Assembly: GCF_053078305.1 (NCBI RefSeq)
Contig: NZ_CP166879.1
Reading direction: 5' to 3' (one strand)
Length of the DNA stretch: 64,000 bases
A model generated the notes under the pieces. The model ran no database searches. It was not told the origin of the DNA and saw only the letters and a list, made by a program, of their open reading frames with translations. Numbering within the stretch: the first letter of the stretch is position 1; each line of letters starts with the position of its first letter. Of this stretch, positions 5,216 to 62,871 are shown in pieces. Made by a program: the position numbers and the translations under genes.

Positions 5216-5279
5216 TGATGCTGATATCGGGCTGGAATGGCCCGATAGTATTTAACTTTCTCTATAAGAATGGTTATAT

Positions 5280-6338: not shown

Positions 6339-6378
6339 TCGTCACTTAATAATTTTGGTTTACCGCGGGCGCGCGTTG

Positions 6379-8151: not shown

Positions 8152-8162
8152 GGAAAACCATC

Positions 8163-8414: not shown

Positions 8415-8418
8415 TTTG

Positions 8419-12362: not shown

Positions 12363-12365
12363 AGG

Positions 12366-12788
12366 GTGCTTAACGATCCCCGATTTACCGCTGAAGTCGA
12401 GCTGACCATTCCCTTTCACGACGTCGATATGATGGGCGTGGCCTGGCACGGTAACTATTTTCGCTACTTTGAAGTGGCCCGCGAGGCGCTGCTCAACCAG
12501 TTCAATTACGGCTATCGGCAGATGAAAGAGTCCGGTTATTTGTGGCCAGTGGTCGATGCGCGGGTGAAATATCGCCACGCCCTCACCTTTGAGCAACGCA
12601 TCCGCGTGCGTGCGCATATCGAAGAGTTCGAAAACCGTCTGCGGATTGGCTATCAGATTTTCGATGCCGAAACGGGCAAACGCGCCACCACCGGATACAC
12701 CATTCAGGTCGCGGTCGACGAGCAAAGCCGCGAACTGTGCTTTGTCAGCCCCGATATTCTGTTTGAACGCATGGGAGTCAAATCATGA
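12366..12788 (+). CDS. apeK: 4HBT/YbgC-type acyl-(ACP/CoA) thioesterase
   Basis: GTG start; 140 aa hot-dog thioesterase pattern IPFHDVDMMGVAWHGNYFRYFE. Confidence 0.8.
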   Translation: MLNDPRFTAEVELTIPFHDVDMMGVAWHGNYFRYFEVAREALLNQFNYGYRQMKESGYLWPVVDARVKYRHALTFEQRIRVRAHIEEFENRLRIGYQIFDAETGKRATTGYTIQVAVDEQSRELCFVSPDILFERMGVKS

Positions 12789-13390
12789 AATTTTTACCGC
12801 TGCTGGCGCTGCTGATTAGCCCGTTTGTGAGCGCCCTGAGCCTGGACGATCTTCAGCAACGCTTTACCGAACAGCCGGTGATCCGCGCCCATTTCGATCA
12901 AACCCGGACGATTAAAGATCTGCCGCAGCCGCTGCGATCTCAGGGCCAGATGTTGATCGCCCGCGACCAGGGGCTGTTGTGGGATCAAACCTCACCGTTC
13001 CCCATGCAACTATTACTGGACGATAAACGCATGGTGCAGGTGATCAACGGTCAGCCGCCGCAAATCATCACGGCAGAAAACAACCCGCAGATGTTCCAGT
13101 TTAACCACCTGCTGCGCGCGCTGTTCCAGGCCGATCGCAAAGTGCTGGAACAAAACTTCCGCGTCGAATTTGCTGACAAAGGCGAAGGCCGCTGGACGCT
13201 GCGCCTGACGCCGACCACCACGCCGCTGGATAAAATTTTCAACACCATCGATCTCGCCGGGAAAACCTATCTGGAGAGCATTCAACTTAATGATAAACAG
13301 GGCGATCGCACCGATATTGCTCTTACCCAACATCAACTGACGCCAGCGCAACTGACCGATGACGAACGCCAACGTTTTGCCGCCCAGTAA
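12785..13390 (+). CDS. apeL: LolA-like periplasmic lipid/lipoprotein carrier
   Basis: ATGA overlap with apeK. Cleavable signal peptide (LLALLISPFVSA); 201 aa. Position matches ApeL. Confidence 0.7.
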   Translation: MKFLPLLALLISPFVSALSLDDLQQRFTEQPVIRAHFDQTRTIKDLPQPLRSQGQMLIARDQGLLWDQTSPFPMQLLLDDKRMVQVINGQPPQIITAENNPQMFQFNHLLRALFQADRKVLEQNFRVEFADKGEGRWTLRLTPTTTPLDKIFNTIDLAGKTYLESIQLNDKQGDRTDIALTQHQLTPAQLTDDERQRFAAQ

Positions 13391-15677: not shown

Positions 15678-16258
15678 TCAAACCTACCTTCTGGCGAGCG
15701 CTCGCCCTGACCGCTACGCTTATCCTCACCGGCTGTAGCCACTCGCAACCGGAACAGGAAGGCCGCCCGCAGGCGTGGCTGCAACCTGGCACGCGCATCA
15801 CGCTGCCGGCACCAGGGATTTCACCCGCCGTCAATTCCCAGCAACTGTTGACCGGCAGCTTCAACGGCAAAACCCAGTCGCTGTTAGTGATGCTTAACGC
15901 CGACGACCAGAAAATCACCCTTGCCGGGCTGTCGTCGGTCGGCATTCGCCTGTTTCTGGTGACCTACGATGCAAAAGGGCTACGCGCCGAGCAATCCATC
16001 GTCGTCCCACAGTTGCCGCCCGCAAGTCAGGTTCTGGCTGACGTAATGCTCAGCCACTGGCCGATTAGCGCCTGGCAACCGCAACTTCCCGCTGGCTGGA
16101 CACTTCGCGACAACGGTGACAAACGCGAACTGCGTAACGCCAGCGGCAAACTGGTCACGGAAATCACCTATCTGAATCGCCAGGGAAAACGCGTGCCAAT
16201 CAGCATTGAGCAGCATGTCTTTAAATACCACATCACCATTCAATACTTAGGTGACTGA
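15674..16258 (+). CDS. apeN: DUF3261-like lipoprotein
   Basis: ATGA overlap with apeM; lipobox LTGCSH; 194 aa. Confidence 0.7.
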   Translation: MIKPTFWRALALTATLILTGCSHSQPEQEGRPQAWLQPGTRITLPAPGISPAVNSQQLLTGSFNGKTQSLLVMLNADDQKITLAGLSSVGIRLFLVTYDAKGLRAEQSIVVPQLPPASQVLADVMLSHWPISAWQPQLPAGWTLRDNGDKRELRNASGKLVTEITYLNRQGKRVPISIEQHVFKYHITIQYLGD

Positions 16259-16259
16259 T

Positions 16260-17429
16260 ATGATTTATATTTCCGCCGTCGGCATGATCAACGCCCTGGG
16301 AAATAACCTTGACGAAATCGCAGCCAACCTAGCTCGCGGTGTCGCCCCCGGAATGCGCCCACGCGCAGGCTGGTTGCAGGGGCATCCGCAGGCGGTCCTG
16401 GCTGGCGTGGATGGCGAGCTTCCGCTTATCCCGGAAAAATTCGCTGCGCATCGCTCGCGCAACAATCAGATCCTGCTGGCGGCGCTGGCGCAGCTCCAGC
16501 CGCAGGTTGATGACGCTATAGCGAAATATGGTCGCGAGCGCATCGCGATTGTACTTGGCACCAGCACCTCCGGCCTGCATGAAGGCGACACGCACGTTAA
16601 CCTACGCACCCACGGGCAGCCGAGCACCACATGGCACTACGCGCAACAGGAACTCGGCGATCCGTCGCGTTTTCTCAGCCACTGGCTGGCGCTCGACGGC
16701 CCGGCCTATACCCTTTCAACCGCCTGCTCTTCCAGCGCCAGAGCGATAATCAGCGGGCGCAGGCTTATCGAAGCGGGGCTGGTCGATGCCGCCATTGTGG
16801 GTGGTGCAGACACCCTGAGCCGGATGCCGATTAACGGTTTTCACAGCCTCGAATCGCTGTCGCCAACCTTATGTCAGCCGTTTGGTCGTGACCGCGCAGG
16901 TATCACCATTGGTGAAGGGGCGGGGCTAATGCTGCTGACCCGGGAACCGCAGCCCATCGCGTTGCTGGGCGTTGGTGAATCGAGCGACGCTTACCATATT
17001 TCAGCCCCGCATCCGCAGGGCGAAGGAGCGATCCGCGCTATTAATCAGGCGCTGACCGATGCGCAGCTTACGCCGGATGACGTCGGCTATATCAACCTGC
17101 ACGGCACCGCCACACAGCTCAACGACCAGATTGAATCAATGGTGGTTAACGCCCTGTTTGGCGAACGCGTACCGTGCAGCTCCACCAAACATTTGACCGG
17201 ACACACGCTGGGCGCAGCGGGCATTACCGAGGCGGCAATTAGTATGTTGATTTTACAGCGTGATTTACCGCTGCCCGCTCAGGACTTCAGCCTGTCGCCG
17301 CGCGATCCCACGCTGCCACCGTGTGGCATTATCGAAAAACCGCAGCCGCTGGCACGTCCGGTGATCCTGTCCAATTCCTTCGCCTTTGGCGGCAATAACG
17401 CCAGCATTCTGCTCGGGAGGGTTTCGTGA
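16260..17429 (+). CDS. apeO: beta-ketoacyl-ACP synthase (elongating KS)
   Basis: ATG 16260 (GTG 16251 also possible). KS motifs TACSSS (active Cys), HGTATQLND, GHTLGAAG. Confidence 0.85.
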   Translation: MIYISAVGMINALGNNLDEIAANLARGVAPGMRPRAGWLQGHPQAVLAGVDGELPLIPEKFAAHRSRNNQILLAALAQLQPQVDDAIAKYGRERIAIVLGTSTSGLHEGDTHVNLRTHGQPSTTWHYAQQELGDPSRFLSHWLALDGPAYTLSTACSSSARAIISGRRLIEAGLVDAAIVGGADTLSRMPINGFHSLESLSPTLCQPFGRDRAGITIGEGAGLMLLTREPQPIALLGVGESSDAYHISAPHPQGEGAIRAINQALTDAQLTPDDVGYINLHGTATQLNDQIESMVVNALFGERVPCSSTKHLTGHTLGAAGITEAAISMLILQRDLPLPAQDFSLSPRDPTLPPCGIIEKPQPLARPVILSNSFAFGGNNASILLGRVS

Positions 17430-17890
17430 GCCACTATTTATCCCCCGGCGCTTATCTGCCCCACGACGCGCCCATGTTACTGCTGGAAGACGTGGTGAGC
17501 GTCAGCGATGACAGCGCGGTGTGCCGCGTGACGGTTTCGCCCAGTGGCGTACTGGCACCGTTTCTCGACCCGGACGGCAATCTCCCTGGCTGGTTTGCCC
17601 TTGAACTGATGGCGCAAACCGTCGGCGTCTGGTCTGGCTGGCATCGCCACCAGCAGGGCAAAAACAGTATTGAGTTAGGGATGATACTGGGCGCGCGTGA
17701 ATTGCTTTGCGCCGCTGGCATTCTGCCCGCAGGCCAGACGCTGACCATTACCGTCAAACTGCTGATGCAGGACGATCGCTTCGGCAGTTTTGAGTGCAGC
17801 ATCAACGACGGCGAGGCGACGGGCCGCATTAACACCTTCCAGCCGACCGCGGAAGAACTTACCACCCTGTTTCAACAAGGAGCGTCCTGA
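17426..17890 (+). CDS. apeP: FabA/FabZ-like hot-dog dehydratase
   Basis: GTG 17426 overlaps the apeO stop; 154 aa. Position matches ApeP. Confidence 0.7.
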   Translation: MSHYLSPGAYLPHDAPMLLLEDVVSVSDDSAVCRVTVSPSGVLAPFLDPDGNLPGWFALELMAQTVGVWSGWHRHQQGKNSIELGMILGARELLCAAGILPAGQTLTITVKLLMQDDRFGSFECSINDGEATGRINTFQPTAEELTTLFQQGAS

Positions 17891-18621
17891 TGAGTCGTTC
17901 AGTTCTGGTTACTGGTGCCAGCAAAGGCATTGGTCGCGCCATCGCCTGCCAACTGGCGGCAGACGGCTTTAACATTGGCGTTCACTATCACCGTGACGCC
18001 ACAGGCGCTCAGGAAACGCTGAATGCCATTGTCGCCAACGGGGGTAACGGGCGTTTGCTCAGTTTCGACGTCGCAAACCGCGAACAGTGTCGGGAAGTGC
18101 TGGAGCATGAGATCGCGCAACACGGTGCCTGGTACGGCGTGGTCAGTAACGCCGGGATCGCCCGCGATGCCGCTTTTCCGGCTTTAAGCGATGACGACTG
18201 GGATGCGGTGATCCACACCAATCTCGACAGTTTCTACAACGTCATTCAGCCGTGCATTATGCCAATGATCGGCGCGCGCCAGGGTGGGCGCATCATCACG
18301 CTGTCCTCGGTTTCCGGCGTAATGGGCAATCGCGGCCAGGTGAATTACAGCGCTGCCAAAGCCGGAATTATCGGCGCAACAAAAGCGCTGGCTATCGAAC
18401 TCGCAAAGCGCAAAATCACCGTCAATTGCATCGCGCCAGGGCTTATTGATACCGGGATGATCGAAATGGAAGAGAGCGCTCTGAAAGAGGCAATGTCGAT
18501 GATCCCCATGAAACGTATGGGCCAGGCGGAAGAAGTTGCCGGGCTTGCCAGTTATTTAATGTCTGATATTGCGGGTTACGTCACCCGCCAGGTTATTTCC
18601 ATCAACGGAGGGATGTTATGA
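17890..18621 (+). CDS. apeQ: 3-oxoacyl-ACP reductase (FabG-type SDR)
   Basis: ATGA overlap. TGASKGIGRA cofactor motif, NYSAAK catalytic motif; 243 aa. Confidence 0.9.
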   Translation: MSRSVLVTGASKGIGRAIACQLAADGFNIGVHYHRDATGAQETLNAIVANGGNGRLLSFDVANREQCREVLEHEIAQHGAWYGVVSNAGIARDAAFPALSDDDWDAVIHTNLDSFYNVIQPCIMPMIGARQGGRIITLSSVSGVMGNRGQVNYSAAKAGIIGATKALAIELAKRKITVNCIAPGLIDTGMIEMEESALKEAMSMIPMKRMGQAEEVAGLASYLMSDIAGYVTRQVISINGGML

Positions 18622-19847
18622 CACGTCGCGTAGTGATTACAGGAATGGGTGGCGTGACTGCCTTTGGTGAAAACTGGCAGGACGTTTCTGCACGCTTACT
18701 GGCGTATGAAAATGCGGTGCGCAAAATGCCGGAGTGGCAGGTCTACGACGGGCTGCACACCCTGCTTGGCGCGCCTGTTGATGATTTCACGCTACCGGAG
18801 CACTACACCCGCAAGCGTATCCGTGCGATGGGCCGCGTGTCGCAAATGTCGACCCGTGCCAGCGAGCTGGCGTTAGAGCAGGCAGGGTTGATTGGCGATC
18901 CGATATTAACCAGCGGCGAAACGGGCATTGCGTACGGTTCATCGACCGGCAGTACCGGCCCGGTAAGCGAGTTCGCCACCATGCTGACGGAAAAGCACAC
19001 CAATAACATCACTGGCACCACCTATGTGCAGATGATGCCGCACACCACCGCCGTTAATACTGGCCTCTTTTTCGGCCTGCGCGGGCGGGTGATCCCAACC
19101 TCCAGCGCCTGTACTTCCGGCAGCCAGGCAATCGGTTATGCGTGGGAAGCCATTCGCCACGGTTATCAAACGGTGATGGTTGCTGGTGGTGCCGAAGAGT
19201 TATGTCCTTCAGAAGCAGCGGTATTTGATACGCTTTTCGCCACCAGCCAGCACAATGATGCGCCGAAAACCACACCTTCACCGTTCGATGAAAACCGCGA
19301 CGGGCTGGTGATTGGTGAAGGCGCAGGTACGCTCATTCTCGAAGAACTGGAGCACGCCAAAGCGCGCGGCGCGACCATTTACGGTGAAATCGTCGGCTTT
19401 GCGACTAACTGCGACGCGGCACATATTACCCAGCCGCAGCGCGAAACCATGCAGTATTGTATGGAGCAATCGCTGAAAATCGCCGGGTTAAGCGCACAAG
19501 ATATCGGCTATATTTCAGCGCATGGTACGGCGACCGATCGCGGTGATATGGCAGAAAGTCTGGCGACAGCAACCATTTACGGTGATAATGTGCCGCTCTC
19601 CTCGCTGAAAAGTTATTTTGGTCATACGCTTGGTGCCTGTGGCGCGCTCGAAGCCTGGATGAGTCTGCAAATGATGCGCGAAGGTTGGTTTGCGCCTACG
19701 CTAAACCTGAATAAACCAGACCCGAACTGTGGCGCGCTGGATTACATCATGCATGAAGCCCGAAAGGTTGATTGTGAGTTTTTGCAGAGTAACAACTTTG
19801 CCTTTGGCGGCATTAATACATCCATCATCATTAAGCGCTGGCCCTGA
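18618..19847 (+). CDS. apeR: beta-ketoacyl-ACP synthase (FabB/FabF-like)
   Basis: ATGA overlap. 409 aa with SSACTSG (Cys), HGTATDRGD, GHTLGACG. Confidence 0.9.
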   Translation: MTRRVVITGMGGVTAFGENWQDVSARLLAYENAVRKMPEWQVYDGLHTLLGAPVDDFTLPEHYTRKRIRAMGRVSQMSTRASELALEQAGLIGDPILTSGETGIAYGSSTGSTGPVSEFATMLTEKHTNNITGTTYVQMMPHTTAVNTGLFFGLRGRVIPTSSACTSGSQAIGYAWEAIRHGYQTVMVAGGAEELCPSEAAVFDTLFATSQHNDAPKTTPSPFDENRDGLVIGEGAGTLILEELEHAKARGATIYGEIVGFATNCDAAHITQPQRETMQYCMEQSLKIAGLSAQDIGYISAHGTATDRGDMAESLATATIYGDNVPLSSLKSYFGHTLGACGALEAWMSLQMMREGWFAPTLNLNKPDPNCGALDYIMHEARKVDCEFLQSNNFAFGGINTSIIIKRWP

Positions 19848-19855
19848 GTTATACA

Positions 19856-19878
19856 ACCACATGGACATCCCATGTGGT
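19856..19878 (+). terminator. hairpin after apeR (probable operon terminator)
   Basis: ACCACATGG-ACATC-CCATGTGGT: 9-bp perfect stem, 5-nt loop, 9 nt after the apeR stop. The trailing tract GATTCTTC is only moderately U-rich. Confidence 0.5.
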
Positions 19879-20157
19879 GATTCTTCAAAAAATCTGAATC
19901 AATGAATATGAACCTCATCCACATTCAACCATTCTTTTGTTTACCATCTGGTTGTCGCCCCCCCTCCAAAAAGCAAATTCTCTTACGCATACTGGAGAGT
20001 ATTCCGTATAAAGATTCAGCTGGCAAAACTTTATCAGTCTGTAAAAACTAACGGAAGAGTCGATATTTCTCCCGTCCATCACCGGATGATTGTTGCAATA
20101 ACCCATAGCATCAGAGACTGAACAGCAGTTTTTAAAGCAACGTATTGCTCTGATGTA

Positions 20158-42228: not shown

Positions 42229-43233
42229 TTACCTTTCGAACACAGTCTGCTGTGTTGTGATTGCCCACGCTATCCGGGCTAATTTGTTGGCCAGTGCGCA
42301 ACATACTACGCTGGAGTGTTTTCTTGCCAACAACGCCCTGACCCAATCCGCCAACCTTCCTGACTGATTCTCGATTCTCTGAATAAAGGATCTTGCGCAC
42401 TGAACGAGTAACCGTCGCAGATTTTTATCTCCACGTTTACTTATCCCTAAAAGTGTATTTTTACCACCTGTGCTGTACTGCCGGGGTACCAGACCGGTTG
42501 AAGCAGCAAAGTCCCGACTGCAGCTATATTGTTTACCGTCTCCCAGCTGCGATGACAGTACGCTGGCGGTTATCGGACCAATACCGGGTATTGTCTGAAG
42601 ACGTTGTCCTACCTCATCACGACTCAGTTCCTGCTCCAGTGCGATTTCAAGCTCGGTGATCTGTCCGACAAGATAAATATAATGGGCATGTAAGCGCATC
42701 AGTAACTGCGCCAGATAGGGAGGAAGTTCGTTCTCTGCAAGTACTGTTGAAAGTCGTTTTACCACTGCGACTCCTGTCGGCATACTGATGCCAAATTCCA
42801 GCAAAAAAGCATGCATCTGATTGGTCGTTTTGACTTTATCACTGACCAATGATTCCCTGGCCCGGTGAAGCGCCCGCATGGCCTGCTGAGCTTCTGTTCG
42901 TGGTTGCACAAATCGCATGGAGGGACGAGATGCCGCTTCGCATATGGCTTCTGCATCGACAAAATCGTTCTTGTTGCTCTTAACAAAAGGGCGAACGAAC
43001 TGCGGAGAAATCAATTTTGCTTCATGACCTAAATCAGCAATCCGGCGAGCCATAAAATGAGCTCCGGCGCAGGCTTCCATCACAACGGTAGACGAGGCAC
43101 AGCCTGCCAGAAACTCAATAAGTTTGGTACGGGTAAACTTTTTACGCAGCAATACCTTGCCTGACTTATCTTGGCAGTGAATGTGAAAGGAATGCTTGCC
43201 AAGATCTATACCAATAAGCGTAATGTTTTGCAT
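42229..43233 (-). CDS. IS110-family (IS1111 group) DEDD recombinase/transposase
   Basis: ATG 43233 (GGAGAAG RBS). 334 aa; MQNITLIGIDLGKHSFHIHCQDKSGK...PQFVRPFVKSNKNDFVDAEAICEAASRPSMRFV...STGGKNTLLGISKRGDKNLRRLLVQCAR closely parallels my memory of the IS4321/IS5075 transposases. Confidence 0.85.
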   Translation of the reverse strand: MQNITLIGIDLGKHSFHIHCQDKSGKVLLRKKFTRTKLIEFLAGCASSTVVMEACAGAHFMARRIADLGHEAKLISPQFVRPFVKSNKNDFVDAEAICEAASRPSMRFVQPRTEAQQAMRALHRARESLVSDKVKTTNQMHAFLLEFGISMPTGVAVVKRLSTVLAENELPPYLAQLLMRLHAHYIYLVGQITELEIALEQELSRDEVGQRLQTIPGIGPITASVLSSQLGDGKQYSCSRDFAASTGLVPRQYSTGGKNTLLGISKRGDKNLRRLLVQCARSFIQRIENQSGRLADWVRALLARKHSSVVCCALANKLARIAWAITTQQTVFER

Positions 43234-43358
43234 GATGGTCTTCTCCATGAAAGAAAAACACTCTACTAGGGTACAGCTCACAGGGTGGTGGGGACCATCT
43301 CATTAACCATGGAAGTTGAGATCCTCAAAGAAGCGGTGGAGTATGGTCAGTCGCGAAA

Positions 43359-44240: not shown

Positions 44241-44272
44241 GATACAACGACTGTCTGAATATCGTGGGTCAA

Positions 44273-46276
44273 GGACAGTTTTTTCCTGCGTGTAAATCAA
44301 TAAATGCTGTTGTATCACCGAACAGAATATTTGAACTGTCTGACTGAATGTCACCTTTTACATCTGCGTTGCGACCGACAGAAAAGTCACTATTTTCAAG
44401 ATATAATGTACCGAATCTGAAAGTGCCATTTTCCCAGTCTGGCTGAGATAAATCAGATACAGTGTTACTGGTTTTATGGATATTACCACTCTGTCTTGCA
44501 ATATCTGCTTCTGTTTTCTGAATTTCGGCGACATAGTCTCTGCCACATAAGAAGCGTATTGGAGCAGGCAGTGAACAGGAGAAATTTCCATCACGGTAAA
44601 TAGCGTGTTCAGTGGCATGTCCCTGCATGGTCAGTTGTGTATTCCGCAGCCTTATATCATTTTGGATATTTATTTCACCATCGAGAATAAGACGATTATT
44701 TTCCTTTTTGGTCTCATGCTGCTGAATTATCGCCACGTTTCCATTTATTTTTCCATGATAGATATAATTAGTATTATTTTTCAGGAATAATTTTGCTTCT
44801 TTATCTGCTGTGTTTGTTATTACAGCGCCTGAATCAGTTGCAGCAATTTTATTGAAAGACTGGTCGTAACCATTCAGGTCAAGCGTACCTCCATTTCTGG
44901 TGAAGAAAATCCCGTTATACTCACCTTCGGACAGTGCTTTTTCTGCATTCAGTTTTACTGTTCCATTGCCGCCAGCCATATAGATATTATTGAAAGCATT
45001 TGTAGCACTGAGATTTACTGTACCATCCCCTGTTTTTAGATTTCCTCCCTAGGAGACCTTCACATTGAGTGTACCTGCACCTATTTTATGAAGGTTATCG
45101 TTTGTCGTGCCTTTCAGGAACCAGTCAACAGTCGAATTTTCACCAATATCAATACCTGCACCAGTATAGATAATATTATCTCCTGTGACAGTATATTTAT
45201 GTCCTTTATCAAAGACAAGTCCGCCACTACCGAGATTAAGATTACTGGTTATGTTCAGTGTTCCCCCACCATGAATAACATTATCTTTATTATTCGAGAG
45301 GGACGTCTGAGATAATTGATTTCCGTTCAGGATAATATCCTGAGAGTATTTTTTCTTTAAATTGTCAACGGTAGTCTGATTCCAGCGGTTTACTGCCGAA
45401 CGAACATTACCGTTGCCATAAATATATTCATCATAAAGAGTACCAAGCACAACCCATTTTTTCTATATTGTCATACAGCAAAAATGGCGATCCGCTGTCA
45501 CCGGAAGTTGTACGATTTCCAAACTCATCAAAAAGGTTATGTGTCGTAATATGTCCGGACCTCCAGTCATCCACGAGCACAAATGAACCATTCAGTAACT
45601 CAGGGACATATGAGACATCTTTGTAATTTATAGTCTTTCCACTTTTCTGTAGTGCCAGGTAACCAGAACCGGCTCTGAAAGCAATTAATTTCTTCTCTCC
45701 TTTAAAATTAATGCCATATCGTTCAATAGCTTGTTCCTTAGTCAGTGACGTATTTGCTCCGGAAACAATCCCTTTTGTTTCCACAACATATTTATTCAGT
45801 CGTGTGACGGCAAAGTCATTACTCGTGTTCCTGTCAACATACTTATAATTTGTTTGCCCCCATGACTGGGTGGCAATGGCATGATGCGTTATTTGATTAT
45901 GTGTCGCGGTAACACTATAAGCGCCGCCAATGGATGTGGATGCTCCTTTGTTTGATACAGGCGAAAAATCGGGGAATGGTACTTCAGGTAATCTATAAAC
46001 AGAACCATCCTTTTTTATAATAGAAATATTTTCATTACCTGCAGTAAATACGCCTTTATTCTGGGCAAAATCAAGATAATCCCGAATATAAAAATTATCA
46101 ATCCACATGTGCGATGCCATTGAGCTTGTAGCAAACAGCATTCCAGCAGGAACCACGATAACAGGTGCCAGTCTGATCTTTTTTCCTGATGCAGTAGTAA
46201 CTCTTTTGGTCAATTCAGAAACGGCAACCAGCCCCCCGGTGATTGCACTGAACTTTAGAGAATAAATTTTGTTCAT
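44273..46276 (-). pseudogene. serine protease autotransporter (SPATE) pseudogene: N-terminal ~650 codons, frameshifted, truncated by the IS2-like element
   Basis: MNKIYSLKFSAITGGLVAVSELTKRV extended signal peptide and S6 peptidase with GDSGSPFLLYD (ORF 45431-46276). It continues in two other frames (45049-45450; 44269-44979 with LTMQGHATEHAIYRDG). The beta-barrel translocator is absent. Confidence 0.85.
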
Positions 46277-50788: not shown

Positions 50789-51304
50789 TCACAACCTCCC
50801 TTTTCTGACCAGAAGCATCCCCTTGTACAACAACTCAACTTCATTATGTACCCGTAACCTCTTTATCAGATTCTGCTTATGAGTGGAGAATGTTTTCTCT
50901 GACATGCCAAGATATCGTGCCCCCTCTGTTCCGTTACTGCCATAAAGCAGCATCATCAGTACATTTACCTGCCGGCCTGACAGGGTCAGCTTCTCCACCG
51001 ACATGAATGCGCGGTACAGATGACTGATATCGTTTACTGAACATCGCTCAGTAAGATGTCTGATATCATAAACCGGACTGTCAACCACTCCCCAGAGAAA
51101 ACGGAGCGCTTCCGGAGAAGAAAAATAAAGGGTGTTCGTATCACTTATATTATTCTTATACAGAAAGCCGACAATTTCAGATATCCGGGAAGAAGATATT
51201 ATCACCACATTATCTGTCTGCATGCCGCTGATAATGAATTTACCGGGATTAATATACTCCTTCACTCCCTCCAGAAAATAACTGTTATCACAAATAAAAC
51301 GCAT
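50789..51304 (-). CDS. LuxR/GerE-type HTH transcriptional regulator
   Basis: 171 aa; C-terminal LSGRQVNVLMMLLYGSNGTEGARYLGMSEKTFSTHKQNLIKRLRV. No receiver-domain phospho-acceptor pattern noticed. Confidence 0.75.
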   Translation of the reverse strand: MRFICDNSYFLEGVKEYINPGKFIISGMQTDNVVIISSSRISEIVGFLYKNNISDTNTLYFSSPEALRFLWGVVDSPVYDIRHLTERCSVNDISHLYRAFMSVEKLTLSGRQVNVLMMLLYGSNGTEGARYLGMSEKTFSTHKQNLIKRLRVHNEVELLYKGMLLVRKGRL

Positions 51305-51427: not shown

Positions 51428-51904
51428 TTACCGGTCTGCGGTGCTGCAGAGATATTTAACACTGACACCTCGCAGACCATTTTTCTCCATCGCATTGTAA
51501 AGATGCGCACATACCGTCTTCATGCTTATCCCCAGCTGGTCTGCCAGAAAGGTACAGCCGTACTCATGGAAAATAACCCCGAAGACCACCACCATCTCGG
51601 TACGGGTCAGTGGTCTTGCCGTATGTCCGAACAACCACGCACCACGACGGATGGCCTGCCTGATATCTGTCAGGCATCTCACAGAGGAAACAGGAATGAC
51701 AAGAAAACGACGCCCACAGAACATACAGTATGTAAGCCTTTCCAGATTACGGTCACAGAGAATCACATAACTGTCTTCGGGAAGTGGCAGACGGCGCTTT
51801 CCGGCATCAAACAGTTCACGGCCTGTCGTGAGCCTGTATCCGTTCAGCATACGCATCAGGCCATATTCCAGATATCTGTCACGGGTCATAATAATAATCT
51901 GCAT
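51428..51904 (-). CDS. LuxR/GerE-type HTH transcriptional regulator (second)
   Basis: 158 aa; C-terminal LTRTEMVVVFGVIFHEYGCTFLADQLGISMKTVCAHLYNAMEKNGL. Confidence 0.7.
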   Translation of the reverse strand: MQIIIMTRDRYLEYGLMRMLNGYRLTTGRELFDAGKRRLPLPEDSYVILCDRNLERLTYCMFCGRRFLVIPVSSVRCLTDIRQAIRRGAWLFGHTARPLTRTEMVVVFGVIFHEYGCTFLADQLGISMKTVCAHLYNAMEKNGLRGVSVKYLCSTADR

Positions 51905-52300: not shown

Positions 52301-53503
52301 TCAGAACTCCCAGTTGACACCCACATTCCAGGAAACATCACCGTCACTGAACGCAGTACCTGCCTTTGCCGCAGCCTGTTCGTTAAAGCGATATCCCATG
52401 CCCACCGCAACAGCCTGCTTGTCACTGTACCCGCCCACTGCCGCTGTGGCGTTAAATTTACCCACACTGTATGGCTGGAAAAGACCGGCCAGCGCTGCTG
52501 ACTGGGCTGCTGCCCGCTTCATTTCCTCATGATTCTCATTAATCTGACGCTGCTGACTGTTCATACGACGCTCATGCGCCTGCAGGGTACGTGCCTGAGA
52601 AGCAATGGCGCGACTGTTGCGTTCACCCACCTGACGGTTACGGCTTACCGCAGCACGGTTTTCTGTGGCCATTTCCTGTGTACGTACCAGCCCTTCCTGT
52701 ACAGTAATTCGTTCACCGGTTCCCTCACCGCGCGTCACATAACCATGACTGTCCACAGCAACGGTACTTCCGGTATTTATCTGCTGTTGCTGGCTGTTCA
52801 GGCGCTCTTCATGCGTCTCCAGCACGTCTCTCTGGGAAAGCAGCCCCCTGGTGTTACGGTTTATGGCCACCGTGTTCCGGATAATATTCTCCCTGTTCTC
52901 TGCAGCAACCGTATCGGTATGGTCACGCGCCTTAAGTGCTTCCGCTGCAATCCGTCCACTGACGTCACTGTACACCTCATCCGCCTTCCGGTTCAGTTGC
53001 CCGACAGTGGCTGCATCCGTATCCCGTGTACCATCACTGACACCACCGAGAACCCGGGTTTTATCCGGTACACGCGGACTGGCCGGGTTTGTGACACCTG
53101 AGTCATATCCGATGTAGACTTCATTTTCACGGGTTGTACCGGACTGCTGACCAAGAGCCACTGAATACCTGTGCATTGCCTGTGCACCCGTACCCAGTGC
53201 TACTGAATTTAAAGCATCTGCAGATGCCCAGCTACCTACTGCCACACCATTAGACGCCTCCGGATTTACATAAGCAGACATCCCCACGGATGTGGAAAAC
53301 GGCGCATGCGCATACGATGCAGAGCCAAGAGCTGTCCCTGCCTTCCCGGCATTCGCCCATGCCCCCACTGCCGTGGAGTCAGTCTCTGATGCAGAGGCTG
53401 TGTCCGGAGACGCCCAGGAACTGCCATCCTGCGCAAACGCCGGAGCACCGGCAATCAGAAAGGAAATAAGCGATAAAGTAATACCGTGTCGATTTATTTT
53501 CAT
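52301..53503 (-). CDS. trimeric autotransporter adhesin (YadA/Eib-like)
   Basis: ATG 53503 (GAGG RBS). Signal peptide [24 protein letters not shown], head repeats (SVALG, AVGxxA), a coiled-coil stalk, and a YadA anchor ...[42 protein letters not shown]...WNVGVNWEF. Confidence 0.85.
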
Positions 53504-53769
53504 AAACAACCTCATTGATATACACAATATACTGGCACAGAGTTAAATTAATATATAATCAGGAGAGAAGTGAAAGAGTACCCGGTGCGAAAATGAATTA
53601 ATCTGAGCAGATTTAACGGTAAACGAAGCGCAATAAATTAAAATTAAAAAACAAAATCACTTGCAGTCTATTATCTTTACGTTCCTCACCGCAACCGCAC
53701 ACAAAAACAAAACACACAATGCATTGATTTTAAACAAAAAAAACAAAACAGAAACTCAACACATAAAAA

Positions 53770-55638
53770 TCAGACAATATAAACAGAATTGTGATTTATA
53801 TCCTCAAGCGCTGTATTAACGAAATATATCTGTCCTCCTGCAATACCTGCCTCAACATCATTTCCGGTTTGTTTCAGACATGAAATAAACTCATCTGTCG
53901 ATGTAACAATACCCTTTGATAAAAACAGAAAATCTTTTTCACCCTTATGTTTATTAAAATCCATGATAAATGAATTCCCTTCACAAGCAGCATCAAAGAC
54001 GAAGACATCATGACCAGTACCACCATACAGATAATCATTACCTCCCCCACCATATAACCAGTCGTTACCTTCTGCTCCGTACAACTCATCATTACCAGAA
54101 GCCCCATGAAGATAATCATTCCCGCGACCTCCGTGTAAAAGACTTACTCCTTCTCCCCCGGCACTATGTAATATATCATTTCCGTCAAGACCAAAAATAA
54201 TATTTCCGAACAGACTATCATCTCCGTTTGTACCTTCTGTATGTTTTCCGTAATCAACATTTTTATTACGCCACTTCAGAAGATACCTGTGGTCTGTAAT
54301 CTGCTCTTCTTCTATCTGATAAGGGCTTAGTTTACTCCTCCAGTCACCAGAAAAAGAGATACCTTCAATACCTGTTGCCTCAGTCAGACCGGCTCCCCGT
54401 TCTGAATGGAAAAACAGCGTCCCATCACTGACCCTGTATATATTCCAGTCATCCATTACATCGCTAAGAAGCAGCGTGTCATACCCACTGCCACCATCAA
54501 CCCTGTTTGCTCCCTTACCTGGTTCAATCTTATCATTCCCTCCCCCTCCCTCTATATAGTCGCCACCCTTCCCGCCTGCCAGCAGATTATTGCCATCATT
54601 ACCGATGATGAATACAGGTCTTTCACGACTCTCATCCCCCTTGTCATGAACCCATGAATACCAGGATGTCCAGCTACTTTGCTCATCCACAATGACTGTA
54701 CTGTCCGGTGACATGTAGTCGTAAAACTGAGCCCCTAAAATTCTTTCAAAGGCGTCAGTTTTTAAACCCGCAAAATGCGCACTCCAGCTTCCCAGCGGGA
54801 GTGCAAGCACAGAAAAGGGGATAATATTCCAGAGGAATGAACCATAAAGGTCTGTGTATAAAACAATGTTATCAGGAGAAGAGTCATATTCACGATCCGG
54901 GGTTGTCAAGCCCGGCCCCATTGCTTTAACTGCCTCCCAGAACCCGGCTCCATCTCCCAGCACACGAAATACCGGATCGTTTTCAAAACCGATATTTAAT
55001 ACCTTCCCATCCCCGTCAAATACCAGCGGGGAAGCCCAGGCTATATAGTCAGAATTAGCATAAAAACCATCAGCCAGAGACTCACTGAGTCTGGCCATAA
55101 TGTTAGTCAACCCGCCCCCCAGGCTATAGCCTGTGACAATAACATATTCACCACTTAAACCATTACTGACTGCAAAGTCTCTGATACTTTGAAGCAGGTT
55201 TTCTGCTTCAGACAGCGCTTTTCCATTATTGAGCTGTGTATAATCAACAATATCGCAGATATCATTTGTTCCACAGAATGATATTGCAATTTTCTGTAGA
55301 TTCTGTTGAGCATCAAACAACCCAACAACTTTCAACTGAGGACCAAATCCTGGCGCAGGGTTTCCTGTAACCGGACTGGGAAAGCGATAAAAACCTCTTG
55401 AATCGACATATTCCGAAGATAACCTGAGTTCTTCCACTGTAATATCACGCCAGCCTTCATTAAGAACATCGGTAGAATAATCAATCCTATCTGGGTGCTT
55501 TGCAAATAGCCTGGATACCAGAAAACTTCCTAATCCAAGAACCTTTCCAGTGTTGGAATATATAGCAAGATTATAAGAAGAAGAAACAAGTTCTGCTACA
55601 TGTGCAAAAGAATAAGATTTATAATTAAACACCCCCAT
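53770..55638 (-). CDS. family I.3-type lipase/esterase with C-terminal RTX repeats (T1SS substrate)
   Basis: ATG 55638 (AGGAGA RBS). MGVFNYKSY..., nucleophile elbow GYSLGG, LNIGFENDPVFRVL and LWNIIPFS parallel Pseudomonas/Serratia I.3 lipases. RTX nonapeptides GGKGGDYIEGGGGNDKI and GGRGNDYLHGASGNDELYGAEGNDWLYGGGGNDYLYGGTGHD. Confidence 0.8.
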   Translation of the reverse strand: MGVFNYKSYSFAHVAELVSSSYNLAIYSNTGKVLGLGSFLVSRLFAKHPDRIDYSTDVLNEGWRDITVEELRLSSEYVDSRGFYRFPSPVTGNPAPGFGPQLKVVGLFDAQQNLQKIAISFCGTNDICDIVDYTQLNNGKALSEAENLLQSIRDFAVSNGLSGEYVIVTGYSLGGGLTNIMARLSESLADGFYANSDYIAWASPLVFDGDGKVLNIGFENDPVFRVLGDGAGFWEAVKAMGPGLTTPDREYDSSPDNIVLYTDLYGSFLWNIIPFSVLALPLGSWSAHFAGLKTDAFERILGAQFYDYMSPDSTVIVDEQSSWTSWYSWVHDKGDESRERPVFIIGNDGNNLLAGGKGGDYIEGGGGNDKIEPGKGANRVDGGSGYDTLLLSDVMDDWNIYRVSDGTLFFHSERGAGLTEATGIEGISFSGDWRSKLSPYQIEEEQITDHRYLLKWRNKNVDYGKHTEGTNGDDSLFGNIIFGLDGNDILHSAGGEGVSLLHGGRGNDYLHGASGNDELYGAEGNDWLYGGGGNDYLYGGTGHDVFVFDAACEGNSFIMDFNKHKGEKDFLFLSKGIVTSTDEFISCLKQTGNDVEAGIAGGQIYFVNTALEDINHNSVYIV

Positions 55639-55797
55639 AAAATCTCCTCTGAATTCATTTAAATATCCTTCATTTATCCAAGAAGAAACAAAAAGCATTA
55701 TTCTCAGATAAATTTTTTCAGTAAAAGAGCATACCTGGAGTAGAACTTACAACGAAAAAGATCCCCCCACAGCAACGACTGTGAGGGGATACTATTG

Positions 55798-58700
55798 TTA
55801 CACTACATTAGTGATTCTCTCATCAATCAGAACCTGTACATCAGGAACCGAAGCATGTGTATAAATGTTATAAGTGATATCCCCTTCAGACTCAGTGCTT
55901 CCTTTAATCCAGTTATACCCATTGTCACTGAGGTTATCCCCGTTATTACCGAGGTCAACCCGAGAACTACCATCACCTGTGACTTTGAGTTTATTACCCT
56001 CTATAGAGGCAGAATTTAAATTCTCAGCCAACAAATTCAGTGCAGCTCCATCTTTCAGTTCAATCTTCTCAAAACCAGAGAATGTGTTGCTTGTGGCATT
56101 ACCCTGATGAATAACCAAGGTATCAAATCCAGAACCACCTTTAATATTTGAAGCATTATCAATATTAGCCACAATATCGATTACATCATTACCAGCACCT
56201 AAATCCAAGGTTGATGATTTGAGCGCAGCAAGAGAATTACCTCCTAACAATAACAGGCTGTCATTTCCATCTTCCATAGTAACAGTCGTTTTCTCTATAA
56301 AACCACCATTATTTGGGTATCCCGAATCATTATCAGGTATTATGATATCTCCATCCAGTCGTTGATACTTAGCGGTTTCTTCAATGCGGTAAGAACCATC
56401 CTTCCCATATACGACATCATAACCGCCTCGACCAAAACCAACTATCAGGATATCATCACCGATACCTGTATTTACCTCGGTCCATAGATCACTATATCCA
56501 ATCCCCAAATCACGACCAGTCACGATGGTATCGTCACCTGCACCAGTATCGACAACCATTGGTCTTACCCAGCGAGAAACGCCCAGATTCCCCAGTGACA
56601 GTTCAGTCGTAATTATATTATCCCCCTCTGTCATTTCCAGTAGAGCGACGTTATTAGCACCATTCTTACTTATTACATAAACATTTGTCCCTACATTTGC
56701 CTCATGAGCCTTAATGGCCAAGAATGATTTAGAATCTTTTTGTAAATCATCATCAGCGATTTTGACCTTTTGACCTGAGCCAGCTGTAACTCCATGACCT
56801 TGCGTCATGTTTACATTACCTGTATAGATAACGGTTCCAATCCGATCTATTGCATCCGGCTTGCCGTTGCCGTTTTCATCCACTGCCGGTACATCGATAC
56901 CGTCAACTTTAGCCAGACGCCCGTTCAGACCGTCCTTCGCATCTCCGGCCGGCAGACCTTCCACCGCTTTCGCCGCATCTGCTTTCGCCGCCGTTACCGC
57001 ATCGTTCTTCGCCGCAAGATCATCATGCTCCTGCTGGGTGATCTTATTGTCAGCCTTCGCCTGAGTCAGCGCCGCTTCTGCTTCTTTTTCCTTCGCTTCC
57101 GCTTCTGCTACCTTGGCTGTCGCTGCATTCACCGCCTCTGCTGCTTCCTCTGCATCCGGCTTGCCGTTGCCGTTTTCATCCACTGCCGGTACATCGATAC
57201 CGTCAACTTTAGCCAGACGCCCGTTCAGACCGTCCTTCGCATCTCCGGCCGGCAGACCTTCCACCGCTTTCGCCGCATCTGCTTTCGCCGCCGTTACCGC
57301 ATCGTTCTTCGCCGCAAGATCATCATGCTCCTGCTGGGTGATCTTATTGTCAGCCTTCGCCTGAGTCAGCGCCGCTTCTGCTTCTTTTTCCTTCGCTTCC
57401 GCTTCTGCTACCTTGGCTGTCGCTGCATTCACCGCCTCTGCTGCTTCCTCTGCATCCGGCTTGCCGTTGCCGTTTTCATCCACTGCCGGTACATCGATAC
57501 CGTCAACTTTAGCCAGACGCCCGTTCAGACCGTCCTTCGCATCTCCGGCCGGCAGACCTTCCACCGCTTTCGCCGCATCTGCTTTCGCCGCCGTTACCGC
57601 ATCGTTCTTCGCCGCAAGATCATCATGCTCCTGCTGGGTGATCTTATTGTCAGCCTTCGCCTGAGTCAGCGCCGCTTCTGCTTCTTTTTCCTTCGCTTCC
57701 GCTTCTGCTACCTTGGCTGTCGCTGCATTCACCGCCTCTGCTGCTTCCTCTGCATCCGGCTTGCCGTTGCCGTTTTCATCCACTGCCGGTACATCGATAC
57801 CGTCAACTTTAGCCAGACGCCCGTTCAGACCGTCCTTCGCATCTCCGGCCGGCAGACCTTCCACCGCTTTCGCCGCATCTGCTTTCGCCGCCGTTACCGC
57901 ATCGTTCTTCGCCGCAAGATCATCATGCTCCTGCTGGGTGATCTTATTGTCAGCCTTCGCCTGAGTCAGCGCCGCTTCTGCTTCTTTTTCCTTCGCTTCC
58001 GCTTCTGCTACCTTGGCTGTCGCTGCATTCACCGCCTCTGCTGCTTCCTCTGCATCCGGCTTGCCGTTGCCGTTTTCATCCACTGCCGGTACATCGATAC
58101 CGTCAACTTTAGCCAGACGCCCGTTCAGACCGTCCTTCGCATCTCCGGCCGGCAGACCTTCCACCGCTTTCGCCGCATCTGCTTTCGCCGCCGTTACCGC
58201 ATCGTTCTTCGCCGCAAGATCATCATGCTCCTGCTGGGTGATCTTATTGTCAGCCTTCGCCTGAGTCAGCGCCGCTTCTGCTTCTTTTTCCTTCGCTTCC
58301 GCTTCTGCTACCTTGGCTGTCGCTGCATTCACCGCCTCTGCTGCTTCCTCTGCATCCGGCTTGCCGTTGCCGTTTTCATCCACTGCCGGTACATCGATAC
58401 CGTCAACTTTAGCCAGACGCCCGTTCAGACCGTCCTTCGCATCTCCGGCCGGCAGACCTTCCACCGCTTTCGCCGCATCTGCTTTCGCCGCCGTTACCGC
58501 ATCGTTCTTCGCCGCAAGATCATCATGCTCCTGCTGGGTGATCTTATTGTCAGCCTTCGCCTGAGTCAGCGCCGCTTCTGCTTCTTTTTCCTTCGCTTCC
58601 GCTTCTGCTACCTTGGCTGTCGCTGCATTCACCGCCTCTGCTGCTTCCTCTGCATCCGGCTTGCCGTTGCCGTTTTCATCCACTGCCGGTACATCGATAC

Positions 58701-61700
58701 CGTCAACTTTAGCCAGACGCCCGTTCAGACCGTCCTTCGCATCTCCGGCCGGCAGACCTTCCACCGCTTTCGCCGCATCTGCTTTCGCCGCCGTTACCGC
58801 ATCGTTCTTCGCCGCAAGATCATCATGCTCCTGCTGGGTGATCTTATTGTCAGCCTTCGCCTGAGTCAGCGCCGCTTCTGCTTCTTTTTCCTTCGCTTCC
58901 GCTTCTGCTACCTTGGCTGTCGCTGCATTCACCGCCTCTGCTGCTTCCTCTGCATCCGGCTTGCCGTTGCCGTTTTCATCCACTGCCGGTACATCGATAC
59001 CGTCAACTTTAGCCAGACGCCCGTTCAGACCGTCCTTCGCATCTCCGGCCGGCAGACCTTCCACCGCTTTCGCCGCATCTGCTTTCGCCGCCGTTACCGC
59101 ATCGTTCTTCGCCGCAAGATCATCATGCTCCTGCTGGGTGATCTTATTGTCAGCCTTCGCCTGAGTCAGCGCCGCTTCTGCTTCTTTTTCCTTCGCTTCC
59201 GCTTCTGCTACCTTGGCTGTCGCTGCATTCACCGCCTCTGCTGCTTCCTCTGCATCCGGCTTGCCGTTGCCGTTTTCATCCACTGCCGGTACATCGATAC
59301 CGTCAACTTTAGCCAGACGCCCGTTCAGACCGTCCTTCGCATCTCCGGCCGGCAGACCTTCCACCGCTTTCGCCGCATCTGCTTTCGCCGCCGTTACCGC
59401 ATCGTTCTTCGCCGCAAGATCATCATGCTCCTGCTGGGTGATCTTATTGTCAGCCTTCGCCTGAGTCAGCGCCGCTTCTGCTTCTTTTTCCTTCGCTTCC
59501 GCTTCTGCTACCTTGGCTGTCGCTGCATTCACCGCCTCTGCTGCTTCCTCTGCATCCGGCTTGCCGTTGCCGTTTTCATCCACTGCCGGTACATCGATAC
59601 CGTCAACTTTAGCCAGACGCCCGTTCAGACCGTCCTTCGCATCTCCGGCCGGCAGACCTTCCACCGCTTTCGCCGCATCTGCTTTCGCCGCCGTTACCGC
59701 ATCGTTCTTCGCCGCAAGATCATCATGCTCCTGCTGGGTGATCTTATTGTCAGCCTTCGCCTGAGTCAGCGCCGCTTCTGCTTCTTTTTCCTTCGCTTCC
59801 GCTTCTGCTACCTTGGCTGTCGCTGCATTCACCGCCTCTGCTGCTTCCTCTGCATCCGGCTTGCCGTTGCCGTTTTCATCCACTGCCGGTACATCGATAC
59901 CGTCAACTTTAGCCAGACGCCCGTTCAGACCGTCCTTCGCATCTCCGGCCGGCAGACCTTCCACCGCTTTCGCCGCATCTGCTTTCGCCGCCGTTACCGC
60001 ATCGTTCTTCGCCGCAAGATCATCATGCTCCTGCTGGGTGATCTTATTGTCAGCCTTCGCCTGAGTCAGCGCCGCTTCTGCTTCTTTTTCCTTCGCTTCC
60101 GCTTCTGCTACCTTGGCTGTCGCTGCATTCACCGCCTCTGCTGCTTCCTCTGCATCCGGCTTGCCGTTGCCGTTTTCATCCACTGCCGGTACATCGATAC
60201 CGTCAACTTTAGCCAGACGCCCGTTCAGACCGTCCTTCGCATCTCCGGCCGGCAGACCTTCCACCGCTTTCGCCGCATCTGCTTTCGCCGCCGTTACCGC
60301 ATCGTTCTTCGCCGCAAGATCATCATGCTCCTGCTGGGTGATCTTATTGTCAGCCTTCGCCTGAGTCAGCGCCGCTTCTGCTTCTTTTTCCTTCGCTTCC
60401 GCTTCTGCTACCTTGGCTGTCGCTGCATTCACCGCCTCTGCTGCTTCCTCTGCATCCGGCTTGCCGTTGCCGTTTTCATCCACTGCCGGTACATCGATAC
60501 CGTCAACTTTAGCCAGACGCCCGTTCAGACCGTCCTTCGCATCTCCGGCCGGCAGACCTTCCACCGCTTTCGCCGCATCTGCTTTCGCCGCCGTTACCGC
60601 ATCGTTCTTCGCCGCAAGATCATCATGCTCCTGCTGGGTGATCTTATTGTCAGCCTTCGCCTGAGTCAGCGCCGCTTCTGCTTCTTTTTCCTTCGCTTCC
60701 GCTTCTGCTACCTTGGCTGTCGCTGCATTCACCGCCTCTGCTGCTTCCTCTGCATCCGGCTTGCCGTTGCCGTTTTCATCCACTGCCGGTACATCGATAC
60801 CGTCAACTTTAGCCAGACGCCCGTTCAGACCGTCCTTCGCATCTCCGGCCGGCAGACCTTCCACCGCTTTCGCCGCATCTGCTTTCGCCGCCGTTACCGC
60901 ATCGTTCTTCGCCGCAAGATCATCATGCTCCTGCTGGGTGATCTTATTGTCAGCCTTCGCCTGAGTCAGCGCCGCTTCTGCTTCTTTTTCCTTCGCTTCC
61001 GCTTCTGCTACCTTGGCTGTCGCTGCATTCACCGCCTCTGCTGCTTCCTCTGCATCCGGCTTGCCGTTGCCGTTTTCATCCACTGCCGGTACATCGATAC
61101 CGTCAACTTTAGCCAGACGCCCGTTCAGACCGTCCTTCGCATCTCCGGCCGGCAGACCTTCCACCGCTTTCGCCGCATCTGCTTTCGCCGCCGTTACCGC
61201 ATCGTTCTTCGCCGCAAGATCATCATGCTCCTGCTGGGTGATCTTATTGTCAGCCTTCGCCTGAGTCAGCGCCGCTTCTGCTTCTTTTTCCTTCGCTTCC
61301 GCTTCTGCTACCTTGGCTGTCGCTGCATTCACCGCCTCTGCTGCTTCCTCTGCATCCGGCTTGCCGTTGCCGTTTTCATCCACTGCCGGTACATCGATAC
61401 CGTCAACTTTAGCCAGACGCCCGTTCAGACCGTCCTTCGCATCTCCGGCCGGCAGACCTTCCACCGCTTTCGCCGCATCTGCTTTCGCCGCCGTTACCGC
61501 ATCGTTCTTCGCCGCAAGATCATCATGCTCCTGCTGGGTGATCTTATTGTCAGCCTTCGCCTGAGTCAGCGCCGCTTCTGCTTCTTTTTCCTTCGCTTCC
61601 GCTTCTGCTACCTTGGCTGTCGCTGCATTCACCGCCTCTGCTGCTTCCTCTGCATCCGGCTTGCCGTTGCCGTTTTCATCCACTGCCGGTACATCGATAC

Positions 61701-62871: not shown

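Follow-up and report, generated by a model that had tools for sequence, protein, structure and literature searches.

A putative helical-stalk variant of the giant type I secretion substrate TosA in a mosaic region of Escherichia coli DNA

The gene and its layout

The window analyzed here is a 64,000-nucleotide stretch of contig NZ_CP166879.1 (NCBI RefSeq assembly GCF_053078305.1), and close to its end it carries a gene for a giant protein. In the open reading frame (ORF) listing, positions 55798 to 62871 of the minus strand form a single uninterrupted ORF of 2357 codons with an ATG start, and the identical protein is recorded in the Escherichia coli assembly GCA_000736735.1 (contig JPQG01000001.1). 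An earlier note, made from the letters of the window, had described the product as a giant type I secretion system (T1SS) adhesin built from alpha-helical repeats. The assignment to a T1SS is borne out by genes for a TolC-family protein, an LssB-family ABC transporter, and an HlyD-family adaptor, which lie directly upstream on the same strand, and we regard the gene as a probable allelic or cassette variant of tosA, placed in a tos-type T1SS operon and encoding a helical stalk. The protein comprises a unique N-terminus of 195 amino acids (aa), 18 repeats of 100 aa, a partial repeat of 12 aa, and a C-terminus of 350 aa. Searches for homologues of the N- and C-terminal ends returned E. coli proteins in nearly every case, and a comparison of the three parts of the protein with the sequences of the Protein Data Bank (PDB) gave chance-level matches only. 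The features of the gene, from its 5' to its 3' end, are as follows.

62879..62883, minus strand: Shine-Dalgarno-like GAGGA, 7 nucleotides (nt) 5' of the ATG, read from the sequence
55798..62871, minus strand: complete coding sequence (CDS), 2357 aa, ~239 kDa, pI 4.4; probable tosA-type T1SS substrate with a GA-like helical stalk
62512..62871, minus strand: N-terminal domain, predicted to be all-beta, aa 1-120, with R50-x-G-D-D-L55, F71-W72, C75, and C82
62425..62502, minus strand: hydrophobic Gly/Ala segment and polyglycine, aa 124-149, NGIIWGGIAFGAGLAAIALAAGGGGG
62287..62424, minus strand: low-complexity Ser/Thr/Gly/Glu/Gln linker, aa 150-195
56887..62286, minus strand: 18 identical 300-bp (100-aa) GA_3 repeats, aa 196-1995, each with three predicted helices and a D-E-N-G-N-G-K-P-D-A-E-E loop
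56851..56886, minus strand: partial 19th repeat, aa 1996-2007, AVDENGNGKPDA, the final junction loop into the C-terminal domain
55801..56850, minus strand: C-terminal domain, predicted to be mostly beta, aa 2008-2357, with four GxGxD turns, one canonical nonapeptide, and an acidic tail that is the presumed secretion signal
55761..55790, minus strand: intrinsic-terminator-like hairpin, 8 nt past the stop codon, with a 13-bp stem containing 7 G-C pairs, followed by the T-tract CTTTTTCGTT

A tos-type secretion operon

TosA is a type I-secreted nonfimbrial adhesin of extraintestinal pathogenic E. coli (ExPEC). In E. coli Nissle, the tos locus consists of genes for a PapB-family regulator, TolC, ABC, and HlyD proteins, the repeat protein, and two helix-turn-helix (HTH) regulators, and it adjoins pic. 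The operon has been described as tosRCBDAEF, with TosA localized at the cell surface and acting in adhesion to host epithelial cells (PMC5956150). The secretion genes here are orthologous to those of tos: TosC, TosB, and TosD of Nissle are 92%, 95%, and 98% identical to the TolC, ABC, and HlyD proteins, respectively, and the gene order and strand are also the same. The ABC (TosB) and TolC-like (TosC) genes lie just past the end of the window, as seen in the contig of GCA_000736735.1, and the ABC and HlyD proteins are 715 and 415 aa long. The ABC protein matches the LssB-family model TIGR03375 with 891 bits against a cut-off of 693 and stays below the HlyB and PrtD cut-offs. The kinship with tos extends into the giant protein itself, whose N-terminal 128 aa are 86% identical to those of Nissle TosA and are followed by the shared Gly/Ala segment and polyglycine. 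Past the Gly-rich segment, no relation remains except for a stretch of 138 residues close to the C-terminus that is 31% identical, and the passenger consists of GA_3 helical repeats, in contrast to the beta-strand or Ig-like repeats of TosA. As in tos, two LuxR-type genes lie downstream, and the locus is found on genomic islands or plasmids; however, the regulators are only 37 to 42% identical to their tos counterparts, TosR is absent, and lipase-like and YadA-like genes are added. Since TosR is missing upstream, expression may differ from that of the classic tos operon; a PapB-like regulator is present in the allele on a sequence type 69 (ST69) plasmid. The neighboring genes within the window are as follows.

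63156..64000, minus strand: 3' part of the HlyD-family adaptor gene (TosD orthologue), TIGR01843, running off the window
53770..55698, minus strand: RTX (repeats-in-toxin) lipase/esterase-like gene, 622-642 aa, with a GYSLG serine motif and six canonical nonapeptides
52301-53527, minus strand: YadA-type trimeric autotransporter gene, ~400 aa, with head, stalk, and anchor, between the lipase-like and LuxR-type genes
51428-51904 and 50789-51304, minus strand: two LuxR-type (GerE) regulator genes, 37% and 42% identical to TosE and TosF, respectively

The lipase-like gene follows the terminator-like hairpin, has its own promoter-like site, and accompanies GA-type alleles in other strains. Its product matches HemolysinCabind with an E value of 1.2e-19 and the polyurethane esterase model PueAB with 334 bits, which is below the cut-off of 670, and it is probably exported by this T1SS as another substrate. 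Past the window, upstream of the T1SS genes, there are also a gene for a 1443-aa YadA-like protein and an OmpA/BamE-domain gene. The OI-28 RTX system of enterohemorrhagic E. coli was considered as the identity of the locus and rejected: its order, tolC, two RTX genes, and then the ABC and membrane fusion protein (MFP) genes (PMC12758282), differs from the order here, and the matches in Shiga toxin-producing E. coli (STEC) share the island layout of the window instead.

The repeat stalk, predicted to be helical

The 18 DNA copies of the 300-bp unit are all identical. Tandem Repeats Finder reports one array, at 56851-62292, with a period of 300, 18.1 copies, 100% matches, and 0 indels, which is far beyond chance. 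The 100-aa unit quoted in the earlier note occurs exactly 18 times, at aa 196-1995. The array is overlain by an antisense ORF of 1844 aa (56794-62328, plus strand) and by a ladder of 83-aa ORFs, 17 in number and spaced 300 bp apart; as the repeat has no stops in those frames, the long ORF and the ladder of short ones are by-products of the repetition and no evidence of genes.

Each unit matches the Pfam family GA_3 (PF22775) with 117.7 bits against a cut-off of 27 (E value of 3.5e-34 for two units), over positions 2-99 of the 100 in the profile and thus over the whole model. AlphaFold2, given two units together with the C-terminus and an alignment of 12 sequences (mean predicted local distance difference test [pLDDT] of 80), predicts three helices per unit, spanning residues 12-45, 51-76, and 82-92 (34, 26, and 11 residues), with a pLDDT of ~85-93, and confidence is low at the repeat junctions. 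The proposal that the stalk is built of GA-like alpha-helical modules and not of Ig-like domains, for which a structure prediction and a Pfam search had been suggested as checks, is thus supported by both, the repeat being predicted as helical rather than as a beta-sandwich; it is sister alleles sharing the N-terminus that are annotated with beta-strand or Ig-like repeats. A search of the PDB found no sequence relative of the repeat among solved structures. Homology with the albumin-binding GA module of streptococci was rejected, since hhalign gave the repeat profile a probability of 0.2% against that module, although this is a weak test. With no profile similarity to the streptococcal module, the name "GA-like" says nothing about albumin binding. 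Long rods of tandem helical bundles also occur in Ebh/FIVAR-GA and GA-module proteins of Gram-positive cocci, which are exported by sortase or Sec pathways. The protein described here differs from these in its T1SS export, its 100-aa repeats, its acidic, calcium-loop-like junctions, and its lack of similarity to the GA module.

The acidic DxNGNG linker that had been noticed between the repeats is real and is kept across alleles. The junction motif D-x-N-x-N-G-x-x-D-x-x-E occurs 18+1 times in the protein, and each junction here has one match to the wider pattern D.[DNS].[DNS]G..[DNE]..[DE], which is present in 15 of 19 other sequences; it is absent from the relatives P0005 and P0021, the second half of the ST69 protein, and the non-E. 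coli relative P0065. The positions Asp1, Asn/Asp3, Asn/Asp5, Gly6, Asp9, and acidic 12 are maintained in most of the other E. coli alleles examined, although the helices have diverged to 46-57% identity. This spacing is that of the DxDxDG, EF-hand, and thrombospondin-type-3 calcium loops, and the Pfam family TSP_3 has no match in the protein. Judged by this pattern, the junction loops probably bind calcium, and they may stiffen the junctions in a calcium-dependent manner, by analogy with the calcium-rigidified Ig-like linkers of other RTX adhesins.

The N-terminal module

From an alignment of 22 sequences, AlphaFold2 predicts aa 1-120 as a domain of 11 strands with a pLDDT of >90. The Gly/Ala segment to which the earlier note drew attention (GIIWGGIAFGAGLAAIALAAGGGGG) is present at aa 124-149. 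Its Kyte-Doolittle mean over 19 residues peaks at 2.03 at aa 135, and it is the sole region above 1.6 and the sole transmembrane-like stretch of the protein. It is also the best conserved part, with W128, L137, A141, and G147 invariant in 16 relatives, and AlphaFold2 gives it a pLDDT of <50. The 2357 aa contain exactly two cysteines, C75 and C82 (CQPGETQC, 62626-62649, minus strand). Of 22 relatives of the N-terminal module, 16 retain the pair, and in several giants of up to 4233 aa these are the sole cysteines. A conserved lone pair of this kind suggests a loop closed by a disulfide and therefore a domain that folds in an oxidizing compartment, the periplasm.

In an exhaustive HMMER search, the module was found in 71 cluster representatives, always at the extreme N-terminus. 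Many of these are giants of 1850-4233 aa whose repeats are of the beta type and whose C-terminal end reads GGxGxDTL...GFE, and the relatives include proteins of Salmonella, Gallibacterium (Pasteurellaceae), Proteus, Testudinibacter, and Neisseria. Among the matches listed, a profile search with the N-terminus added little past E. coli and one Gallibacterium protein. A search for related loci with a seven-sequence N-terminal alignment yielded 6 loci, and in Proteus mirabilis the module gene is followed by TolC-, ABC-, and HlyD-sized ORFs, classed by size alone. The N-terminus has no Pfam or NCBIfam match at an E value of ≤1.

The C-terminal domain

The earlier note had assigned ~580 aa to the C-terminal region, which is too long, since the nonrepeat part measures 362 aa (aa 1996-2357), including the 12-aa partial repeat. 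Degenerate GxGxD repeats were correctly seen there: four were found, one of them in the only canonical nonapeptide (GGxGxDxUx) of the region, which is GGSGFDTLV at aa 2245-2253 (nt 56113-56139), and the other three looser. The secretion signal that was claimed along with them can be kept as presumed. HemolysinCabind (PF00353) has no match in the protein at an E value of ≤1, and tandem nonapeptides are not found. AlphaFold2 models the C-terminus mostly as strands, with a pLDDT of ~80-92, and its Foldseek matches are few and weak but all to RTX beta-rolls, namely, those of the PML/Pseudomonas MIS38 lipase, PrtC, the alkaline protease AprA, and MpIBP RIV. The domain is thus predicted from the model to be beta-roll-like. 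Its homologues are confined to E. coli, are 36-100% identical, and have a mosaic pattern, which suggests, as far as sequences go, recombination within the domain. In one relative (P0058), the last ~30 residues are identical to those of this protein (55801-55890, minus strand), and the remaining C-terminal domain is ~45% identical.

Alleles in the E. coli population

Among 5426 complete E. coli genomes, 307 carry DNA coding for the N-terminus, and in 64 of the 307 the match reaches the GA-type linker. Most of the remaining carriers are annotated as beta-strand or Ig-like repeat proteins, the classic TosA. With blastn, GA-type repeats were found in 38 genomes, in up to 40 or more copies and at 66-77% identity to the unit described here. 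A GA-type allele is present in ~1% of the genomes. A megablast search with two units gave no match at ~85% or more. The unit is unique at the megablast level, because the more distant blastn search found genuine relatives. The exact C-terminal type is complete in one of the 5426 genomes.

The other GA-type alleles differ in the length and number of their units. CFS3273 has 34 identical units of 303 bp in a protein of 3992 aa, and STEC1585 has 28 identical units of 306 bp in a protein of 3503 aa, and its island matches the window in gene order. On a plasmid of an ST69 meningitis isolate, the unit is 288 bp long, and a frameshift splits the gene into two CDS. In one strain, the same island holds an allele with beta-strand repeats. 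The units are identical within an allele and 46-57% identical between alleles. In addition, the N-terminal sequence is carried by 23 E. coli plasmids, 18 of them predicted to be conjugative, and the locus as a whole is found on chromosomal islands of STEC and ExPEC and on conjugative virulence plasmids. At the sequence level, this pattern indicates an exchange of passenger cassettes together with repeated amplification and homogenization of a single unit, and it may give rise to variation in length and antigenicity.

The tosA-type reading and its alternatives

Several results weigh against the reading of the gene as a tosA variant with a helical stalk. The PapB-family regulator TosR is not encoded upstream here, where an IS3-family integrase fragment (3867-4711 of the extended locus L001, past the end of the window) takes its place, and with the hairpin after the stop codon and the additional lipase-like and YadA-like genes, the operon differs from tosRCBDAEF. 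The fold of the N-terminal domain has no significant structural match in the PDB. The best Foldseek match of the C-terminal fold, with an E value of 4.5e-3, is weak, and the C-terminal region has no Pfam or NCBIfam match at an E value of ≤1, the RTX and T1SS-target models included. At two positions, 8 (Pro) and 13 (Ala), the junction loop does not conform to the strict EF-hand pattern of PROSITE, as judged by eye. Finally, what is said here of the secretion, retention at the surface, calcium binding, and adhesion of this allele is inference.

An alternative that we hold to be improbable is that the product is no tethered adhesin and is instead fully released, binds a host protein such as albumin or immunoglobulin, or forms part of the biofilm matrix. 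The naming of the repeat family as GA-like is in keeping with this, as are the adjoining lipase-like gene, which would encode a classic released T1SS product, and the fact that retention at the surface is itself a proposed step. However, the repeat has no relation to the streptococcal GA module in the hhalign comparison, itself a weak test, and the N-terminal module, with its cysteine pair and hydrophobic segment, is strictly conserved with the surface-localized TosA and other giants, which argues for a function close to the cell. The 18 to 40 or more identical spacers are likewise the typical build of a fibrillar adhesin.

A still less likely alternative is an adhesin of the LapA type, in which the N-terminal retention module would be cut at the LAAG dialanine by a periplasmic LapG protease under the control of cyclic di-GMP and LapD, releasing the protein. 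The LssB family, to which the ABC transporter belongs, also serves LapA-like adhesins. The protein shares with Pseudomonas fluorescens LapA, MpIBP, FrhA, and BrtA a giant, repetitive stalk, a folded N-terminal domain followed by a Gly-rich stretch, here with AAG and polyglycine, a C-terminal Gly/Asp-turn region with a (presumed) secretion signal, and probably calcium-stiffened junctions. In LapA, polyglycine likewise follows the retention module (bioRxiv 10.1101/198937). In 4 of 22 distant relatives, BapA_N matches were obtained below the threshold (13-19.5 bits against a cut-off of 27), and from these a remote relation of the N-terminus to the BapA prefix is possible.

The resemblance of the N-terminus to the BapA-prefix/retention module, as proposed in the earlier note, nevertheless found no support. 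The BapA prefix-like domain (PF22783 and NF033677) has no match to this protein at an E value of ≤1, no retention-module domain was matched by a sequence model or by a fold like that of PDB 5ix9, and the N-terminal family profile has no match among PDB sequences. The interpretation of AAG as a LapG-type site fares no better. The LapG site consensus, [T/A/P]AA[G/V], and a tandem RTX pattern typical of LapA-like proteins have been defined (10.1101/198937). A regular-expression search of aa 1-195 and the C-terminus found no [T/A/P]AA[G/V], the motif present being LAAG, and the pattern Dx[L/I]x4GxDx[L/I]xGGx3D is absent from the protein; the neighboring lipase-like protein, as a positive control, contains it twice. 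The dialanine is buried in the transmembrane-like hydrophobic stretch and is not conserved in distant relatives such as P0066 (ALAIFLANRNHGG), in which it is missing, and P0070 (ISAASSSS). The absence of LapG and LapD genes from the window, which had been noted before, was confirmed by Pfam scans of 45 + 8 ORFs: Peptidase_C93, LapD, GGDEF, and EAL have no match in the 64 kb (one scan listed 25 of 26 families, the 26th apparently being the weakest), nor do LapG- or LapD-like genes occur in a further 10 kb upstream, for a total of ~74 kb. Unlike the LapA-type proteins, this one also has the transmembrane-like segment, the conserved cysteine pair, and a helical stalk in place of BIg or cadherin-like domains.

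The idea that the perfect array is an assembly or consensus artifact or that the gene is a decaying pseudogene is very improbable: although a tandem array of 5.4 kb with 100% identity between its copies poses difficulties for assembly, many database relatives are fragments at contig ends, and a frameshift interrupts the copy on the ST69 plasmid, the 7-kb ORF is intact, independent complete genomes hold 34 and 28 identical units whose lengths of 303 and 306 bp are multiples of 3, and the recorded contig of the gene spans 1.76 Mb.

The tosA-type reading accordingly describes a protein that is genetically tos and that would work like a fibrillar adhesin of the RTX/LapA type, while lacking the defining LapA-like features and the canonical RTX pattern. 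Its parts are already catalogued, the protein being a member of the group that RefSeq names "GA-like domain-containing protein" (repeat family PF22775, GA_3), as its relatives in complete E. coli genomes are also named. A literature search found no paper on E. coli proteins with the GA-like domain or on a helical-stalk variant of TosA.

Proposed mode of action

As a tosA-type substrate, the protein would be exported with its C-terminus first by TosC (TolC-like), TosB (the LssB-family ABC transporter), and TosD (HlyD), guided by an acidic signal at the C-terminus that is not cleaved. Once outside the cell, the C-terminal domain of 350 aa may fold in a beta-roll-like manner on its few degenerate Gly/Asp turns, driven by calcium, and as the strain-variable part of the protein it would be the most likely ligand-binding tip. 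The 18 GA_3 units are predicted to form elongated three-helix modules, and the junction loops, probably by binding calcium, would stiffen the chain. With ~5 nm for each 34-residue helix, 18 units could make a rod of ~90 nm. The N-terminal module would emerge last, remain in the periplasm and the channel, and tether the protein in the manner of a retention module, with no recognizable LapG site; the hydrophobic and polyglycine stretch may lie in or near the channel, and the beta plug may be locked by the disulfide. As the fold has no significant solved counterpart, the role of a plug is proposed from the position of the module and by analogy. The lipase-like neighbor would be exported as another substrate and released.

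Since the repeat copies are all identical in DNA sequence and in frame, homologous recombination can freely change the length of the stalk. The alleles differ in unit sequence, copy number (18, 28, 34, and 40 or more), and C-terminal domain, which suggests diversification in antigenicity and length. A broader proposal, which we put forward tentatively and regard as rather doubtful in its full extent, is that TosA-type proteins represent a second, LapG-independent kind of tether, consisting of a beta plug with one periplasmic disulfide and a transmembrane-like Gly/Ala helix, on which stalk cassettes are interchangeable; the cassette here would be a previously undescribed calcium-clasped helical rod, whose length and antigenicity change by recombination and which spreads on conjugative plasmids.

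Other features of the window

The region is a mosaic of islands and insertion sequence (IS) elements. Its G+C content ranges from 38% to 60% across 2-kb windows of the whole stretch, and of a 25-kb stretch, at most 28% is found in one place in any complete E. coli genome. A serine-protease autotransporter of the SPATE type (ESPR, Peptidase_S6, and PIC/Hap beta-solenoid) is present as fragments in three ORFs at 44269-46276 (minus strand) and 42229-43281 (minus strand); the fragments adjoin an IS110-family transposase gene and probably represent a disrupted pseudogene. At ~5000-20000 (plus strand), there are genes for ApeI- and ApeP-type dehydratases, three ketoacyl synthases, a ketoreductase, a LolA-like protein, an MMPL protein, an acyltransferase, a glycosyltransferase, and a thioesterase, which look like an aryl-polyene (APE) pigment cluster. 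At 2538-4310 (minus strand) lies a gene for an outer-membrane transporter of two-partner secretion of the ShlB/FhaC type, with POTRA domains (E value of 4.9e-91).

Implications

In extraintestinal E. coli, TosA is recognized as a marker of fitness and virulence. PCR and gene-presence surveys aimed at tosA would misclassify loci such as this one, since its secretion genes and the 5' part of the substrate gene belong to tos, whereas the passenger is wholly different. One secretion machine and one N-terminal module carrying either beta-strand or alpha-helical stalks would constitute a natural experiment on what an RTX adhesin requires of its stalk. The two aspects most worth following are the N-terminal module, as a LapG-independent tether, and the homogenized helical stalk with its calcium-loop-like joints; in the former, the cysteine pair and the hydrophobic segment offer a testable handle on how T1SS adhesins may be retained in bacteria that apparently have no LapG or LapD.

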